Part shown: positions 11,837-17,390 of the stretch, piece after piece
Numbering within the stretch: the first letter of the stretch is position 1
Layout of the letters: every line of letters starts with the position of its first letter
Source of the DNA: Candidatus Heimdallarchaeota archaeon
GTDB lineage: Archaea > Asgardarchaeota > Heimdallarchaeia > Heimdallarchaeales > Heimdallarchaeaceae
DNA: 18,895 nucleotides
Reading direction: 5' to 3'
Assembly (NCBI GenBank): GCA_019894795.1
Contig: JAGXNV010000027.1
Location: forward strand, 1 to 18,895
The notes under the pieces: model-generated
The model's input: the letters and a program-made list of their open reading frames with translations, nothing else
Databases searched by the model: none
Told to the model about the DNA's origin: nothing
Position numbers and translations under genes: made by a program

Positions 11837-12856
11837 ATGTGGTTAGAAATTATTTTAATGATAACGGTCCCCGGTATCATATTCATCGTATTAATGGGTT
11901 TGTTCATTGATTGGTTGGATAGAAAAGTATACGCCAGGGGGCAGAATAGAAAAGGACCACCATTCTTGCAACCACTTTATGACATAGTAAAATTAACAGC
12001 TAAGGAATCGATTATACCACAAGGAGTAAGTAAATTCTGGATGACTGTTTTACCAATAGCATTTATAGCCACAGCACTAACTGGAGCACTTATGATTCCA
12101 ATAGTTGTTTTAAATGAAGCTGGGCTAGTTGCTGGTTTTGCATCATTCGAATTTGACGTATTCTTTGTTTTACTGATATTACTATCTTATGGAATGTTAA
12201 TTTATTTCATAGGTTTTGTTACAAAAAATCCCTTTGCTCAAACAGGTTCTACAAGATCTCTTCTCCAAGCATTAAGCTTTGAGATACCCCTTGGATTTAG
12301 CATGCTAGTCCCAATCCTTATTGTAGGTATTGGAGATTCAGAAGCTAGCTTCAATTTAGCTTATATAAGTAAGAACCTTTACTCTGTTATTGGAGAACAG
12401 CGTCTGTACATAATTTCCATAGTTATAGCTCTAGTTATATCTGTGATTGTTATGATGGCTGAGCTGGAAGAGTTTCCATTTGATTCTCCTCTTTCTCATA
12501 CAGAATTAGCTGATGGTTGGTTGGTTGAATATGGTGGGTGGAGATATGCTCTAATCCATCTTGGTGAAAGAATTGGCGCATTTTTCATAGGCGGTTTAAT
12601 CGTTACACTATTCTTAGGTGGCCCATATATTGGTCCAGCCTTCTTAACTGGTATTGGCATAGTTGATGGCATATTGCATTTGCTATTCTTCTTGATAAAA
12701 CTAGTTTTAGTAATAGTAGTAATGTCATTCTTACGAACACTCATTTCTCGTATAAGAATTGATCAATCTGTAAGATTAGCCTGGAAACAAGTGTTACCCA
12801 TAGCCATCATTGCCTTGATGTTAACTCTAGGGTTCAAACTAATAGGAGGCGCATAA
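11837..12856 (+). CDS. nuoH: NuoH/ND1-like membrane subunit (complex I / Fpo / group-4 hydrogenase family)
   Basis: 339-aa polytopic ORF. Motifs: [30 protein letters not shown] (canonical ERK..A..Q.R.GP...G.LQP.AD..KL..KE), [10 protein letters not shown], and [28 protein letters not shown] (canonical PFD..EAE.EL..G...EYSG). GGAGGA lies 10 nt upstream of the ATG. Confidence 0.85.
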
Positions 12857-12858
12857 AT

Positions 12859-14097: not shown

Positions 14098-15906
14098 ATG
14101 TCTACAATAGTAATATTTACAATAATAGCCATTGTTGCCCCCATAGTTGGTGCATTTCTCTCACTACTACTGAAGAAATGGTCAGCTGTGCGTGACATTT
14201 TTAGTGTTAGTTCAATTGGAATTTCAGCTATAGCAGCAATTGTTGTATTTGGTTTATATGACGGCAGTCCAATAGACAGCACGGTCAATTGGCTAAATTG
14301 GTCAGTAACCTCTGTACAAACTGGGGTCTACCTAGATTCACTCTCAGTCCTAATGGGACTCATTGTTTCAGTATTAAGTATGTTAATTGCATTCTTCTCA
14401 CTGGAATACATGGGTGAAGATAAACACAAACCTAGATACTGGTTCTTCATTCAACTATTTGTTGGTGGGATGCTACTACTAGTCTTCGCCTCGGATATGA
14501 TTTTCCTATTCTTAGGCTGGGAATTAGTTGGTCTATGTTCTTGTTTCCTAATCGGTCACTTCTACATGAAAAAAGGTGAAGAAGGAGAAAAGCCTGCAAA
14601 AAGTGGAATTAAAGCTTTGATCATGACAGGTATAGGTGATGTAGGTCTGCTTGCATTTTTAGCATGGGCTTATACACAAAATAACAACGTACTAATTAAT
14701 GATCCGGCTAATAATTTTGATGTAGCACCTGGTATAGGTATTGTAATGAGCATTCTATTGGTACTTGCACCTATTACAAAATCTGCACAATTTCCACTCC
14801 AATCTTGGTTAAGTTCAGGAGACACCGTGGATGTTGATGCTATGCAAGGCCCCACCACTGTTTCAGCACTAATACACGCTGCAACAATGGTTAAGGCAGG
14901 TGTGTATCTTGTTGCTCGATTCAGCCCAATATGGGATGTACAAGCATTCTATACTATACTCATGGTGGTTGCTGGAATATCAACAGTATTAGCTGCAATC
15001 GGCGCGCTAGTATCAACAGATCTCAAAAGAGTACTTGCTTACAGTACAATCTCACAACTTAGTTACATGTTCTTAGCATTTACAATACGAACTGATGAGG
15101 GATTGTTTGCAGGACAAATGCATTTGTTCTCACACTCAATATTCAAAGCGCTACTCTTCTTGTCAGCAGGTGCAATTATTCACTCTGTTGCTGAAGAACG
15201 AGACATGAAGAAAATGGGTGGATTACGCAAAGACCTACCTTGGATTTACGGATTTATGATGGCTGGTGCTCTTGGTTTGATTGGTCTCCCAATTTTAACT
15301 AACGGTGGATTTTCAAAAGAACTAATAATAACAGCAGCTTTTAATGAAGGAAATTGGTTTATCTTTGTCCTTACAGTACTAACAGCTTTCTTAACTGCAT
15401 TATATGCTGCAAGAATGTTCTTCATGATCTTCCATGGTAAGAACAGAGGAGTAAAGGTCCACAAACCTAAATATATAATGAGAATCACATTAGGAATTCT
15501 AGCTGTGCTAGTTGTAGTAACAGGATTTCTTATTGAAGGTCCATTGCATAACTTATTCAGCGGACATGCTGATCCATATGAATTAATTAGAGACTTTAAA
15601 GTCGTGCCTTTCATTTCTGCTTTTGGAGCAATAATATTAGGTGTCGGATTAGCTTTCTTGTTATATGGTAAAGGTCAAACTGAAGTAAGTTTCATTGAGG
15701 ACAATAAAATGATGAAAGCTTGTAGAGAAATTGTAGCCAATGGTTACTACATTGATCACTTGTACAATCTAATTATCATCAAGCCTATATTCTGGATTGG
15801 AAAACAACTTTCTTTCCTGAAGACAGGTAAGATTAATTGGAATATGCTACTTGGATCCGCAGTGGCAATAGTTGCTATTGCAGTTTTAGTGATGGTGATG
15901 GTCTAA
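14098..15906 (+). CDS. nuoL: NuoL/ND5-like antiporter-type subunit with C-terminal lateral-helix region
   Basis: 602 aa. Motifs: LGWELVGLCSCFLIGHFY, TKSAQFPLQSWL...DAMQGPTTVSALIHAATMVKAGVYLVAR, HSIFKALLFLSAGAIIH, MGGL, GGFSKE. The C-terminus is ANGYYIDHLYN...(about 55 aa)...final TM, the NuoL-specific HL helix plus TM16 layout. Confidence 0.88.
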   Translation: MSTIVIFTIIAIVAPIVGAFLSLLLKKWSAVRDIFSVSSIGISAIAAIVVFGLYDGSPIDSTVNWLNWSVTSVQTGVYLDSLSVLMGLIVSVLSMLIAFFSLEYMGEDKHKPRYWFFIQLFVGGMLLLVFASDMIFLFLGWELVGLCSCFLIGHFYMKKGEEGEKPAKSGIKALIMTGIGDVGLLAFLAWAYTQNNNVLINDPANNFDVAPGIGIVMSILLVLAPITKSAQFPLQSWLSSGDTVDVDAMQGPTTVSALIHAATMVKAGVYLVARFSPIWDVQAFYTILMVVAGISTVLAAIGALVSTDLKRVLAYSTISQLSYMFLAFTIRTDEGLFAGQMHLFSHSIFKALLFLSAGAIIHSVAEERDMKKMGGLRKDLPWIYGFMMAGALGLIGLPILTNGGFSKELIITAAFNEGNWFIFVLTVLTAFLTALYAARMFFMIFHGKNRGVKVHKPKYIMRITLGILAVLVVVTGFLIEGPLHNLFSGHADPYELIRDFKVVPFISAFGAIILGVGLAFLLYGKGQTEVSFIEDNKMMKACREIVANGYYIDHLYNLIIIKPIFWIGKQLSFLKTGKINWNMLLGSAVAIVAIAVLVMVMV

Positions 15907-17390
15907 TGAATTATCTATCGTTAATACTAATTATCCCTCTTGCAGGTGCTGGTTTGCTTGCTTTATTCGAGCAAATTAGAAAATACCTTGTCAAGATAAA
16001 GATAAATGTCGACATCTTAAACCATGCTTTCGCAAATGTTGTAGCATTCGGAATATTCGTATTCAGTTTTGTTTCAATATTTGTAAACGGAATATGGTCA
16101 GTGAATACTACCTCTGATGGACTATTAGAATTTGGACAATTGCAGTCAATATTGATTACAATATTCAGCTTCTTAGTCTGGATGGCTGTTCTCTTTAGTG
16201 TAGATTACATGAAAGGTAAGAATGGTTTAGGATACTACTATGCTTTGATCCTTACATTACTATCAGGTTTAAGTGCAGTAACTATGGCAAATAATTTCTT
16301 CACCCTATTCATTGGTTGGGAAATGTTTGCTCTGAGTGGTTACACACTTGTTGCATTTGATAGAATGAAACGAGGAGCAGTAGAAGCTTCATTGAAATAC
16401 TTCATCATGTCAACTGTTGGAAGCATGTTCGTACTTCTTGGAACAGCTTTAACATACGGAAGATTTGGAACAGTAAACTTTGTGGCAGTAAAAGCTGCAC
16501 TTGGTAGTAGCAATCCAACTAATCCATTAACTGGTGCAATTGTTGCGCTTTTTGTTATTGGTTTTGGTGTTACATCTGCAGTGATTTTCCTAAATGCTTG
16601 GTTACCTGATGCACACTCTTCAGCACCTTCAACAATTTCTGCTTTGCTTTCGGGTATTGTAGTTAAAGCAGGTGCTTTCGGTATATTCAGAACCATAATC
16701 ACAGCATTTGGAAATACTAACATATTGCCCTACACATCAGTATTCATTTCTTGGATAGCTATCTTCACTATGTTTGAAGGAAACTTCTTAGTTTTCTATC
16801 AATTCAGAAGAAGTGATATAGTAGACTTCAAGAGAATATTAGCTTACTCTACTACTGTACATTTAGGATACATCCTTCTTGGTATAGGAGCAGGCACTGA
16901 TGTTGGTGTTCAAGCATCTATCTTCCATATACTAACACACTCTTTAGGCAAAGGATCCCTCTTTTTGCTCAGTGGAATAATTATTGCAGCCCTAGGCTCA
17001 CGAGATGTTCGTGACATGAAAGGTCTTGGAAGAAGATCTCCTCTTATAGGAATCTTTCTAACAATCGCCCTTCTATCACTAGGTGGTATACCAATTACAG
17101 CTGGTTTTTACTCAAAACTACTTGTAATCGTATCTGCCGCTGGTGGACTTTATAGTCCAACCATGAACGTTCTCATCGTGATAATGGCTATCCTTAATTC
17201 TCTGCTAGCTCTTGGAAGTTATCTATACATCCTAAAGATAATGTTATTCGATGAACCTGATGCAAAAGCAGTCGATAAGATTGAAATCCCAATAATACAA
17301 ACTATTGTTATGTCAATAATGGTAGTGCTAATTATCTTCTTAGGTATTTGGCCAGATAGTATACTACACTTTATTGGCTTAGTAGTTTAG
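15906..17390 (+). CDS. nuoN: NuoN/ND2-like antiporter-type subunit
   Basis: 494 aa from ATG 15906, which forms a TAATG overlap with the nuoL-like stop. Motifs: LFIGWEMFALSGYTLVAF...EASLKYFIMSTVGSMFVLLG, WLPDAHSSAPSTISALLS, LAYSTTVHLGYILLG, HSLGKGSLFLLSG, GFYSKLLV. The EA.LKY...G...S motif favours NuoN over NuoM. The track start (TTG 15837) overlaps nuoL in another frame and is rejected. Confidence 0.8.
   Translation: MNYLSLILIIPLAGAGLLALFEQIRKYLVKIKINVDILNHAFANVVAFGIFVFSFVSIFVNGIWSVNTTSDGLLEFGQLQSILITIFSFLVWMAVLFSVDYMKGKNGLGYYYALILTLLSGLSAVTMANNFFTLFIGWEMFALSGYTLVAFDRMKRGAVEASLKYFIMSTVGSMFVLLGTALTYGRFGTVNFVAVKAALGSSNPTNPLTGAIVALFVIGFGVTSAVIFLNAWLPDAHSSAPSTISALLSGIVVKAGAFGIFRTIITAFGNTNILPYTSVFISWIAIFTMFEGNFLVFYQFRRSDIVDFKRILAYSTTVHLGYILLGIGAGTDVGVQASIFHILTHSLGKGSLFLLSGIIIAALGSRDVRDMKGLGRRSPLIGIFLTIALLSLGGIPITAGFYSKLLVIVSAAGGLYSPTMNVLIVIMAILNSLLALGSYLYILKIMLFDEPDAKAVDKIEIPIIQTIVMSIMVVLIIFLGIWPDSILHFIGLVV

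Follow-up and report, generated by a model that had tools for sequence, protein, structure and literature searches.

A nuoH-A-J-K-L-N operon of Heimdallarchaeaceae as the probable membrane half of a split, two-pump complex-I-type enzyme

Respiratory complex I is thought to have arisen stepwise from Mrp-linked hydrogenases via MBS-like enzymes, with the proposed steps that the NiFe cysteines were lost, pumps were added and the peripheral arm was attached anew. Several described systems bear on the operon considered here, nuoH-A-J-K-L-N on the + strand (11837..17390) of an 18,895-nucleotide stretch of contig JAGXNV010000027.1 from a Candidatus Heimdallarchaeota archaeon (the window; ~36% G+C). 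The Asgard ‘Complex I-like’ group-4 [NiFe] hydrogenases (Appler et al., 10.1101/2024.07.04.601786) have a membrane arm of NuoA/H/J/K/L and one NuoN-like subunit, a NuoBCDI peripheral arm and hyp neighbours, and lack NuoM and NuoEFG. In an example from an Asgard metagenome-assembled genome (MAG), L044, ten or eleven genes are contiguous (A-B-C-D-H-I-J-K-L-N, within the cluster hypF-hycI-A-B-C-D-H-I-J-J'-K-L-N-hypC-hypE) and the large subunit carries all four NiFe cysteines (RLCGIC and DPCIGC). MBS, the sulfane-sulfur reductase of the hyperthermophile P. furiosus with ferredoxin-dependent polysulfide reductase activity, is encoded by a single operon; its Na+ module (MbsA, MbsB, MbsC and part of MbsE) is of the Mrp type, NuoA is lacking, and the peripheral arm is attached via transmembrane helices (TM) 15-16 of MbsH', at the membrane arm's opposite end. 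Its large subunit, MbsL, retains two of the four NiFe cysteines (C85 and C385) and has no counterparts of H38 and Y87 of Nqo4 or of E21. The MBS structure paper (PMC7684303) describes a proximal cluster with three Cys ligands as the catalytic site, and lateral-helix length as tracking pump number. Ehr complexes (Marreiros et al. 2013, as described in PMC6349859) are hydrogenase-related, have incomplete Ni/Fe ligands and combine NuoB/C/D/H/I-like with antiporter-like subunits; they form a loose class defined by what its members lack, and their physiological acceptor is not known.

For the host lineage itself, shortened complex-I-like complexes have been predicted in Heimdallarchaeia, including Heimdallarchaeaceae (10.1101/2024.07.04.601786), so this general architecture is already published. 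Wu et al. 2022 (PMC8813620) report ‘one MBH complex’ per Heimdallarchaeum genome, and the legend of their Fig. 1c refers to an ‘MBH operon’ of electron-transport genes and maturation factors; the hypEF + nuoHAJKLN locus studied here is very probably that operon. The supplementary files of PMC8813620 contain no hydrogenase or Nuo terms, and a literature search of a limited collection returned no paper joining Asgard archaea with Mbx or MBS. Our analysis favours, at a probability of roughly 60%, the view that the six genes supply the membrane part (P-module) of a complex-I-type enzyme with ten subunits and two pumps, its genes being divided between two operons far apart. The components of the operon are as follows.

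11837..12856, + strand: nuoH, 339 amino acids (aa); membrane anchor that docks the electron-transfer (Q) module (PF00146, E=7.5e-65)
12859..13269, + strand: nuoA-like gene, 136 aa, three TM helices (PF00507, 22.1 bits, just under the cut-off of 23.3)
13266..13772, + strand: nuoJ, 168 aa (PF00499, E=3e-12)
13769..14092, + strand: nuoK, 107 aa (PF00420, E=1.8e-21)
14098..15906, + strand: nuoL, 602 aa, distal antiporter-like pump (PF00361 and PF00662; TIGR01974 at 450 bits, above its cut-off)
15906..17390, + strand: second antiporter-like pump of the NuoN/MbhH/MbsH/MrpD type, 494 aa (PF00361, E=6e-60)
17409..17433, + strand: oligo-T tract downstream of the six genes, read directly from the sequence

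The genes are tightly packed, and their coordinates reproduce the translational coupling described in the initial annotation: a 2-nt gap, ATGA overlaps at the next two junctions, a 5-nt gap and finally a TAATG overlap. The absence of NuoB/C/D/I and NuoM from the H-A-J-K-L-N order was likewise borne out, as the window, like the flanking 10 kb of relatives, contains neither B/C/D/I nor a third antiporter-like gene. The idea that B/C/D/I might lie just beyond the window edge was rejected, the 8-10 kb flanks of relatives being free of them. The features said to bound the unit are also present, namely 203 nt of upstream non-coding DNA (11634-11836) with GGAGGA at 11821-11826, and the oligo-T tract downstream. 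Oligo-T terminators are known from archaea, and the tract is likely to be such a transcription terminator; a scan for sigma-70 promoters and intrinsic terminators was not informative for an archaeon. TTG 15837 was rejected as the start of the last gene, whose true start is the ATG at 15906 within the TAATG junction.

Profile searches of the six proteins assigned them to complex-I-type families. NuoH matched NdhA, MbhM and E. coli NuoH in the PDB at ~90 bits each, belongs to an Asgard-specific NuoH clade (97% bootstrap) and retains the TM5-6 loop motif AE..FPFD...EL..G..EY, which lines the catalytic chamber. The NuoA-like protein has FASG instead of (Y/F)E(C/S)G and FDVA instead of FDVE; a profile of eight orthologues matched exclusively NuoA/ND3/NdhC chains in the PDB (E=5e-5 to 1e-3). 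Together with the PF00499 and PF00420 matches of NuoJ and NuoK, this upholds the A, J and K homologues as genuine. NuoJ is a single fused gene in the window, compared with two genes (J and J') in L044 and in the euryarchaeal MAG L042. The best NCBIfam models for NuoK are NuoK and FpoK, with MrpC lower, and the protein has one membrane glutamate (E36), like MbsG and MrpC. Among PDB chains the N-like subunit matched MbhH (181 bits), MbsH (159 bits) and M. smegmatis NuoN (136 bits), and it retains TM5 E139, TM8 K254 and TM12 K404. In all Heimdallarchaeaceae orthologues its TM7 Lys/Pro/His triad is replaced by T223/F228/N230, whereas L042 keeps the canonical residues. The Mrp antiporter (MrpA-G) has no NuoH-like subunit; here, in contrast, NuoH and NuoA are encoded and MrpB/E/F/G genes were not found in the operon or its flanks, which agrees with the earlier argument against a plain Mrp system.

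NuoH homologues 73-94% identical to that of the window occur in MAGs named Candidatus Heimdallarchaeaceae or Heimdallarchaeota, including AB_125, and a scan of species-representative genomes recovered 28 loci. In tblastn searches with all window proteins the order hypE-hypF-H-A-J-K-L-N was found in every Heimdallarchaeaceae contig long enough to judge (~26 species), showing that the H-A-J-K-L-N arrangement is conserved; across these ~26 genomes a third antiporter-like gene is never present and B/C/D/I never adjoin. The same order occurs in two closed chromosomes, those of Candidatus Heimdallarchaeum endolithica (CP084167.1) and Candidatus H. aukensis (CP084166.1). Because the junction at 11634-11836 recurs in ~26 genomes, including these two, its misassembly, which the initial annotation had considered, is excluded. 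An exact look-up of the window NuoL returned no record. The conserved neighbours on the 5' side are:

8160..11633, + strand: hypE and hypF, [NiFe]-hydrogenase maturation genes (Pfam AIRS/AIRS_C and HypF), directly upstream of the nuo unit

A partner for the arm was sought with the NuoD of a Hodarchaeales-type H-B-C-D-I contig (its NuoH 36% identical to the window's) as query. The Heimdallarchaeaceae NuoD loci are compact nuoB-C-D-I operons with no membrane-subunit gene within 6-10 kb. In both closed chromosomes this operon lies 1.66-1.8 Mb from the arm:

H. endolithica CP084167.1: BCDI at ~0.66 Mb, arm at ~2.475 Mb, chromosome of 3.33 Mb
H. aukensis CP084166.1: BCDI at ~0.586 Mb, arm at ~2.243 Mb, chromosome of 3.08 Mb

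For ~7 further MAGs, NuoD and NuoH have NCBI accession numbers only 369-1227 apart. NCBI numbers the proteins of one genome consecutively, and we therefore take both genes to lie in the same genome. With an arm that lacks a Q-module and a Q-module that lacks a membrane anchor, pairing the two is the parsimonious reading. In a related Hodarchaeales-type contig, moreover, a NuoH from the Asgard clade to which the window's belongs lies directly beside BCDI genes of the same clade as the Heimdallarchaeaceae BCDI (57-72% identical).

The partner module is most similar to that of MBS. NuoD scores 286 bits against MbsL, compared with 226 against Nqo4 and 147 against MbhL. In place of the hydrogenase motifs RxCGxC and DPCxxC it has DRVCVLEP and QCPADVDR, and so keeps two of the four NiFe cysteines, the first of each motif, matching C85/C385 of MbsL (ICVPEP and NCPPDIDR). 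Neither residue, C72 or C366, varies among ten clade members from Asgard, Thermoplasmata and ‘Thermococci’ MAGs. The one NuoD-type partner to be found thus carries CxxE and CPxD rather than the two CxxC motifs of a NiFe-binding large subunit. The quinone ligands H38 and Y87 of Nqo4 are replaced by Ala25 and Val73 (HMMER alignment to 2FUG chain 4). NuoB, whose best PDB match is MbsJ (137 bits), has three cysteines in total (NSCG, GSCT and PGCP), so its proximal cluster has at most three Cys ligands; the sequence FNSCGFSE lacks the tandem Cys-Cys that belongs to the four Cys ligands of N2. NuoI has two CxxCxxCxxxCP ([4Fe-4S]) motifs, and beside nuoI lie a 2x[4Fe-4S] ferredoxin gene in three loci (L011, L012, L045) and a flavodoxin gene in two of these (L011, L012). 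These motifs set the module apart from group-4 [NiFe] hydrogenases, from canonical quinone reductases and from Fpo-like modules. The suggestion that the operon is the membrane half of a split complex with its redox module elsewhere therefore stands as regards the split, given the orphan nuoBCDI operon, but not as regards a group-4 hydrogenase or Fpo-like module. The other option raised with it, a redox-independent module, gained no support, as NuoH keeps its chamber loop and the two orphan operons are complementary.

The composition of the arm is reflected in the length of the NuoL lateral helix:

15670..15846, + strand: shortened lateral-helix region of NuoL, residues 525-583, TM15-TM16 (AlphaFold model and alignments)

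NuoL is of the complex-I type. Its best PDB sequence match is E. coli NuoL (258 bits), which is also the top Foldseek match (TM score 0.83) of its AlphaFold model (pLDDT 83, pTM 0.86), and its channel residues are intact (the TM5 Glu of GWE, K228, H342/H346/K350 and K407). In the model the lateral region comprises helices at 531-535, 537-547 and 552-575, ~45 residues overall (531-575), and the TM15-TM16 stretch is 23 residues shorter than in E. coli NuoL and ~29 shorter than in Paracoccus. Tail length, taken as the residues past a conserved (G/K)(Y/F/W)x(F/V/I)D motif (D553 in the window), was compared at 80 metagenome NuoL loci (L046-L125) at which adjacent antiporter-like genes were counted. 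The tail is 46-50 aa in each two-pump cluster whose downstream sequence reaches far enough to exclude a third gene: 49 in the window, 48 in L024, 50 in L004, 49 in L042 and 46 in L044. By contrast, the 33 clusters encoding NuoL and two further pumps have tails of 73-154 aa, mostly 75-77. The difference of ~25 residues corresponds to ~38 Å of helix, about the width of one subunit. The initial annotation had taken the lateral helix to be full length; a tail of 49 aa against at least 73 in 33 of 33 three-pump clusters refutes this. Total length is no proof of a full lateral helix, as the 602 aa mask the ~25-aa deletion, which is offset by insertions elsewhere (a 7-aa one in the TM7 loop and others). 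The accompanying claim that NuoM is absent is strengthened, both by the lack of a third antiporter-like gene in ~26 genomes and by a NuoL tail of two-pump length. NuoM is genuinely missing, and the lateral helix falls one pump short. L042 and L044, the outside relatives, share the two-pump state, which therefore characterizes the clade and does not stem from a local deletion.

Across L046-L125 the NuoL tails fall into discrete classes of ~46-52, ~73-80, ~100 and at least 114 aa, the shortest being that of two-pump clusters; the longer classes may reflect extra pumps or C-terminal extensions. The tail thus offers a simple sequence ruler for pump count in fragmentary metagenomic clusters, ~48 aa indicating two pumps and at least 73 aa three. 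The TM7-loop insertion is SGDTVDV (residues 240-246, window 14815-14835) in the TM7-TM8 loop (WLS-SGDTVDV-DAMQGPT); an insertion at this position is common to all aligned Asgard two-pump NuoL proteins and is not seen in E. coli or Bathyarchaeota-like NuoL.

In the enzyme that we propose, NuoH would dock the peripheral NuoB-C-D-I module encoded 1.66-1.8 Mb away, NuoA, J and K would form the coupling channel, and the NuoN-like subunit and NuoL would act as two antiporter-like pumps clamped together by the shortened lateral helix of NuoL. Electrons would enter from a putative donor, reduced ferredoxin or possibly flavodoxin, and travel by way of NuoI, with its two [4Fe-4S] clusters, to the proximal cluster of NuoB. 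Reduction of an acceptor in the chamber between NuoB, NuoD and NuoH would drive export of a presumed H+ or Na+ via the arm. No production of H2 is expected, because the partner has no NiFe site. Sulfane sulfur (polysulfide) or another small oxidant, as in MBS, would be a likelier acceptor than quinone, because the quinone His/Tyr pair is missing and the proximal cluster is of the three-Cys type.

Such an enzyme would resemble the L044 hydrogenase in its NuoA/H/J/K/L arm with one NuoN-like subunit, its lack of NuoM and NuoEFG, its NuoBCDI peripheral arm, its hyp neighbours and its short NuoL tail (46 aa in L044, 49 in the window). It differs in being split into HAJKLN and BCDI, and in drawing its BCDI from another clade in which the NiFe site is incomplete. 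With MBS it shares the best matches of NuoD and NuoB (MbsL and MbsJ), the same two cysteines, the missing equivalents of H38/Y87, a three-Cys proximal cluster (read here from sequence only), two antiporter-like pumps and a lateral helix of matching length. Unlike MBS, it has a NuoA that is genuine, a NuoJ encoded by one fused gene and a NuoL of complex-I type, no MrpB/E/F/G-like genes in the operon or flanks, and a NuoH that is weakly MbsM-like (65 bits). Respiratory complex I (NDH-1), whose 11-subunit core includes seven membrane subunits (A, H, J, K, L, M and N), is matched by homologues of every core subunit but M, that is A-D, H-L and N (BCDI in trans), by the NuoL fold and channel residues, and by scattered genes like those of cyanobacterial ndh. 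It is not matched in NuoM (two rather than three pumps), in the lateral helix (~25 residues shorter), in the quinone His/Tyr and tandem-Cys N2 ligands, in NuoK (one rather than two glutamates) or in the TM7 lysine of the N subunit. On the assumption that arm and BCDI pair, the enzyme would fit the broad Ehr class, although its split layout, its arm with NuoA and a NuoL lateral helix and its Asgard host lie outside the Ehr descriptions consulted (PMC6349859).

The two halves appear to differ in ancestry. The closest outside relative of the window arm is the arm of L044 (identity H 38%, L 43%, K 38%, N 34%; range 33-43%). In L042 the genes run J-J'-K-L-N-A-B-C-D-H-I-hycI and the large subunit has RICGIC and DPCMGC. 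The Heimdallarchaeaceae BCDI proteins, in contrast, are 57-73% identical to the MbsL-type BCDI of the Hodarchaeales-type contig L009 and the Thermoplasmata contig L043, whereas B, C and D are 30-45% identical to those of L044 and L042. The arm thus appears to descend from an Asgard complex-I-like [NiFe] hydrogenase and to serve a module of another lineage. We propose tentatively, at a little under even odds, a module swap in which the two-pump arm evolved on an Asgard [NiFe] hydrogenase, lost that module and is now paired in trans with an MBS-type, NiFe-less module of different ancestry. The hypE-hypF genes beside the arm, which we do not regard as components of the complex, are probably a relic of this hydrogenase ancestry. 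In the NuoH tree L009 (an MbsL-type cluster) and L044 (a NiFe cluster) are sisters with 100% bootstrap and the window clade is sister to both, so NuoH phylogeny is uninformative as to the original Q-module type of the arm.

Two further clusters were seen among the outside relatives. L009 (10001-13692) has a compact nuoH-B-C-D-I with an MbsL-type NuoD and no A/J/K/L/N within 10 kb. L007 (10001-13908; the same as L040, CAZHRF010000015.1) has a stand-alone H-A-J-K-N, its NuoH 50% identical to the window's, with one antiporter-like subunit, no NuoL and hence no lateral helix, and neither hyp genes nearby nor B/C/D/I within 10 kb; in its N subunit the lysines of TM11 and TM12 are missing as well.

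The alternative closest to previous interpretation is that the arm belongs to a true membrane-bound [NiFe] hydrogenase, whose distant catalytic subunits dock on NuoH, are matured by hypEF and evolve H2 from ferredoxin. This corresponds to the ‘MBH’ reading of Wu et al. 2022 (PMC8813620), who describe an ‘MBH operon’ of electron-transport genes and maturation factors. Indeed, every Heimdallarchaeaceae genome examined has hypE and hypF directly upstream, the nearest outside arms (L044 and L042) serve true NiFe hydrogenases that carry RxCGxC and DPCxxC and are accompanied by a hycI gene, and Heimdallarchaeaceae are placed among lineages with group-4 hydrogenases (10.1101/2024.07.04.601786). However, a catalytic subunit was not found in the operon or within 10 kb in any genome, and the sole NuoD-type gene found in the closed genomes has lost two of the four NiFe cysteines. 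The hyp genes, of which hypE and hypF adjoin the arm while hycI and hypC do not, are required in any case for two reported cytosolic group-3 hydrogenases, and the more distant stand-alone arm L007 has no hyp neighbours. Among the named matches, moreover, there is no second NuoH or NuoL type in Heimdallarchaeaceae, and we consider a hydrogenase assignment unlikely. The hydrogenase set of Appler et al. required two CxxC motifs (10.1101/2024.07.04.601786); the MbsL-type module lies outside it because this filter would exclude it.

It is quite unlikely that the same split complex, BCDI included, is simply a Nuo/Fpo-like enzyme of the usual kind, reducing quinone or phenazine and with its genes dispersed as they are in cyanobacteria. 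The names given by NCBIfam point in that direction for NuoD (NF004739, 359.7 bits against a cut-off of 360) and NuoB, and matches were also obtained with the models for FpoD, FpoH and FpoK. The make-up of the arm is that of complex I (A, H, J, K and an L that bears a lateral helix), and its NuoL fold is nearest to complex I, yet the arm lacks NuoM and its lateral helix is one pump short. At the catalytic site, Nqo4 H38/Y87 are replaced by Ala/Val and the tandem Cys-Cys is missing at the proximal cluster, and Wu et al. (PMC8813620) saw no discernible terminal electron-accepting pathway in Heimdallarchaeum genomes. More improbable still is an Mrp-like role for the arm alone, as a redox-independent cation/proton antiporter or scaffold. 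The unit is a self-contained transcription unit, its L and N pair matches the MrpA/MrpD core, and deactive mammalian complex I can serve as a Na+/H+ antiporter (PMC3464577). Against this, NuoH and NuoA have no Mrp role and both keep the loops lining the catalytic chamber, equivalents of MrpB, E, F and G are missing, and a complementary orphan BCDI operon is present in the same genomes.

The proposed ten-subunit enzyme has points against it too. The physical association of arm and BCDI is one that we infer, and a search for an upstream motif shared by the two operons found none. The candidate acceptor is read from motifs. Window NuoH scores 65 bits against MbsM, below its scores with NdhA, MbhM and E. 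coli NuoH (~90 bits), and the pumping competence of the N-like subunit is uncertain because its canonical TM7 lysine is replaced. On contig L043 (4042-10284) a nuoBCDI of the same MbsL-type clade is followed directly by hdrA, whose product has an MvhD/FlpD domain, and then by hdrC and hdrB, while membrane-subunit genes are not present nearby; the BCDI module may therefore be able to work without such an arm, for example by feeding a heterodisulfide-reductase-like partner. Finally, the partner search was led by homology rather than covering whole genomes, and a true group-4 hydrogenase, a solitary nuoM or Mrp genes could lie elsewhere.

If arm and module do pair, the enzyme would unite a catalytic site of the MBS stage (two of four cysteines and a three-Cys cluster) with an architecture of the complex-I stage (NuoA and the NuoL lateral helix) and two pumps. 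These three states in one natural system would make the proposed evolutionary steps testable. A module swap would further mean that the P- and Q-modules of the superfamily are interchangeable and can be encoded separately, and that a living intermediate with an MBS active site and complex-I architecture exists in archaea closely related to eukaryotes. Hydrogen-syntrophy models of eukaryogenesis have treated the locus as a membrane-bound hydrogenase. Because no catalytic subunit is encoded and the only partner found cannot bind NiFe, it does not support membrane-coupled H2 evolution. This absence of evidence from the ‘MBH’ locus, the split layout and the mismatched ancestry of arm and catalytic module appear to be novel.

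The leader of nuoH contains two conserved elements:

11721..11743, + strand: promoter-like box ACGATAAACCTTAATAATTAGCT (also given as ACGATAAACCTTAAnAATTAGCT), nearly invariant in 15 of 16 aligned Heimdallarchaeaceae loci
11810..11829, + strand: hairpin UAAUCCUU-AAUG-GAGGAUUA, predicted 8-bp stem, on which minimum-free-energy and centroid folds agree

The box, whose one exception among the 16 loci is L024 (H. endolithica), stands out from variable intergenic DNA and is a putative archaeal BRE/TATA-type element. The predicted hairpin sequesters the Shine-Dalgarno GGAGGA (11821-11826), 8 nt upstream of the nuoH ATG. Its core, aTCCn(4-5)GGAGGAtt, occurs in 15 of the 16 aligned loci, the stretch of L004 ending before the 3' arm. 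A Shine-Dalgarno locked in this way hints at translational control of nuoH; an Rfam scan of the 5' leader gave no family match.

The remainder of the window encodes gyrB, a carbamate kinase, a MiaB-like radical-SAM gene, VIT1, hypE and hypF upstream of the six-gene nuo unit, and a DUF8058 gene after it. The listed hypE open reading frame begins at TTG 8160 (363 aa), but orthologues are annotated with 342 aa, in keeping with a start at ATG 8223 (MKPDTII...). Just past the oligo-T tract, 17480-17857 encodes a 125-aa multi-pass membrane protein whose orthologues are annotated as DUF8058, although a direct scan gave no Pfam match; it is kept in most relatives. This protein was not adopted as a seventh subunit, because its gene lies past the oligo-T tract and the closed Heimdallarchaeum genomes do not have it. 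The carbamate kinase gene (3182-4120) is intact in the window (312 aa), whereas many relatives covering the position (for example L017, L023, L029, L030 and L034-L036) have fragments only and several others gave no tblastn match, which suggests that the gene is decaying in the family.

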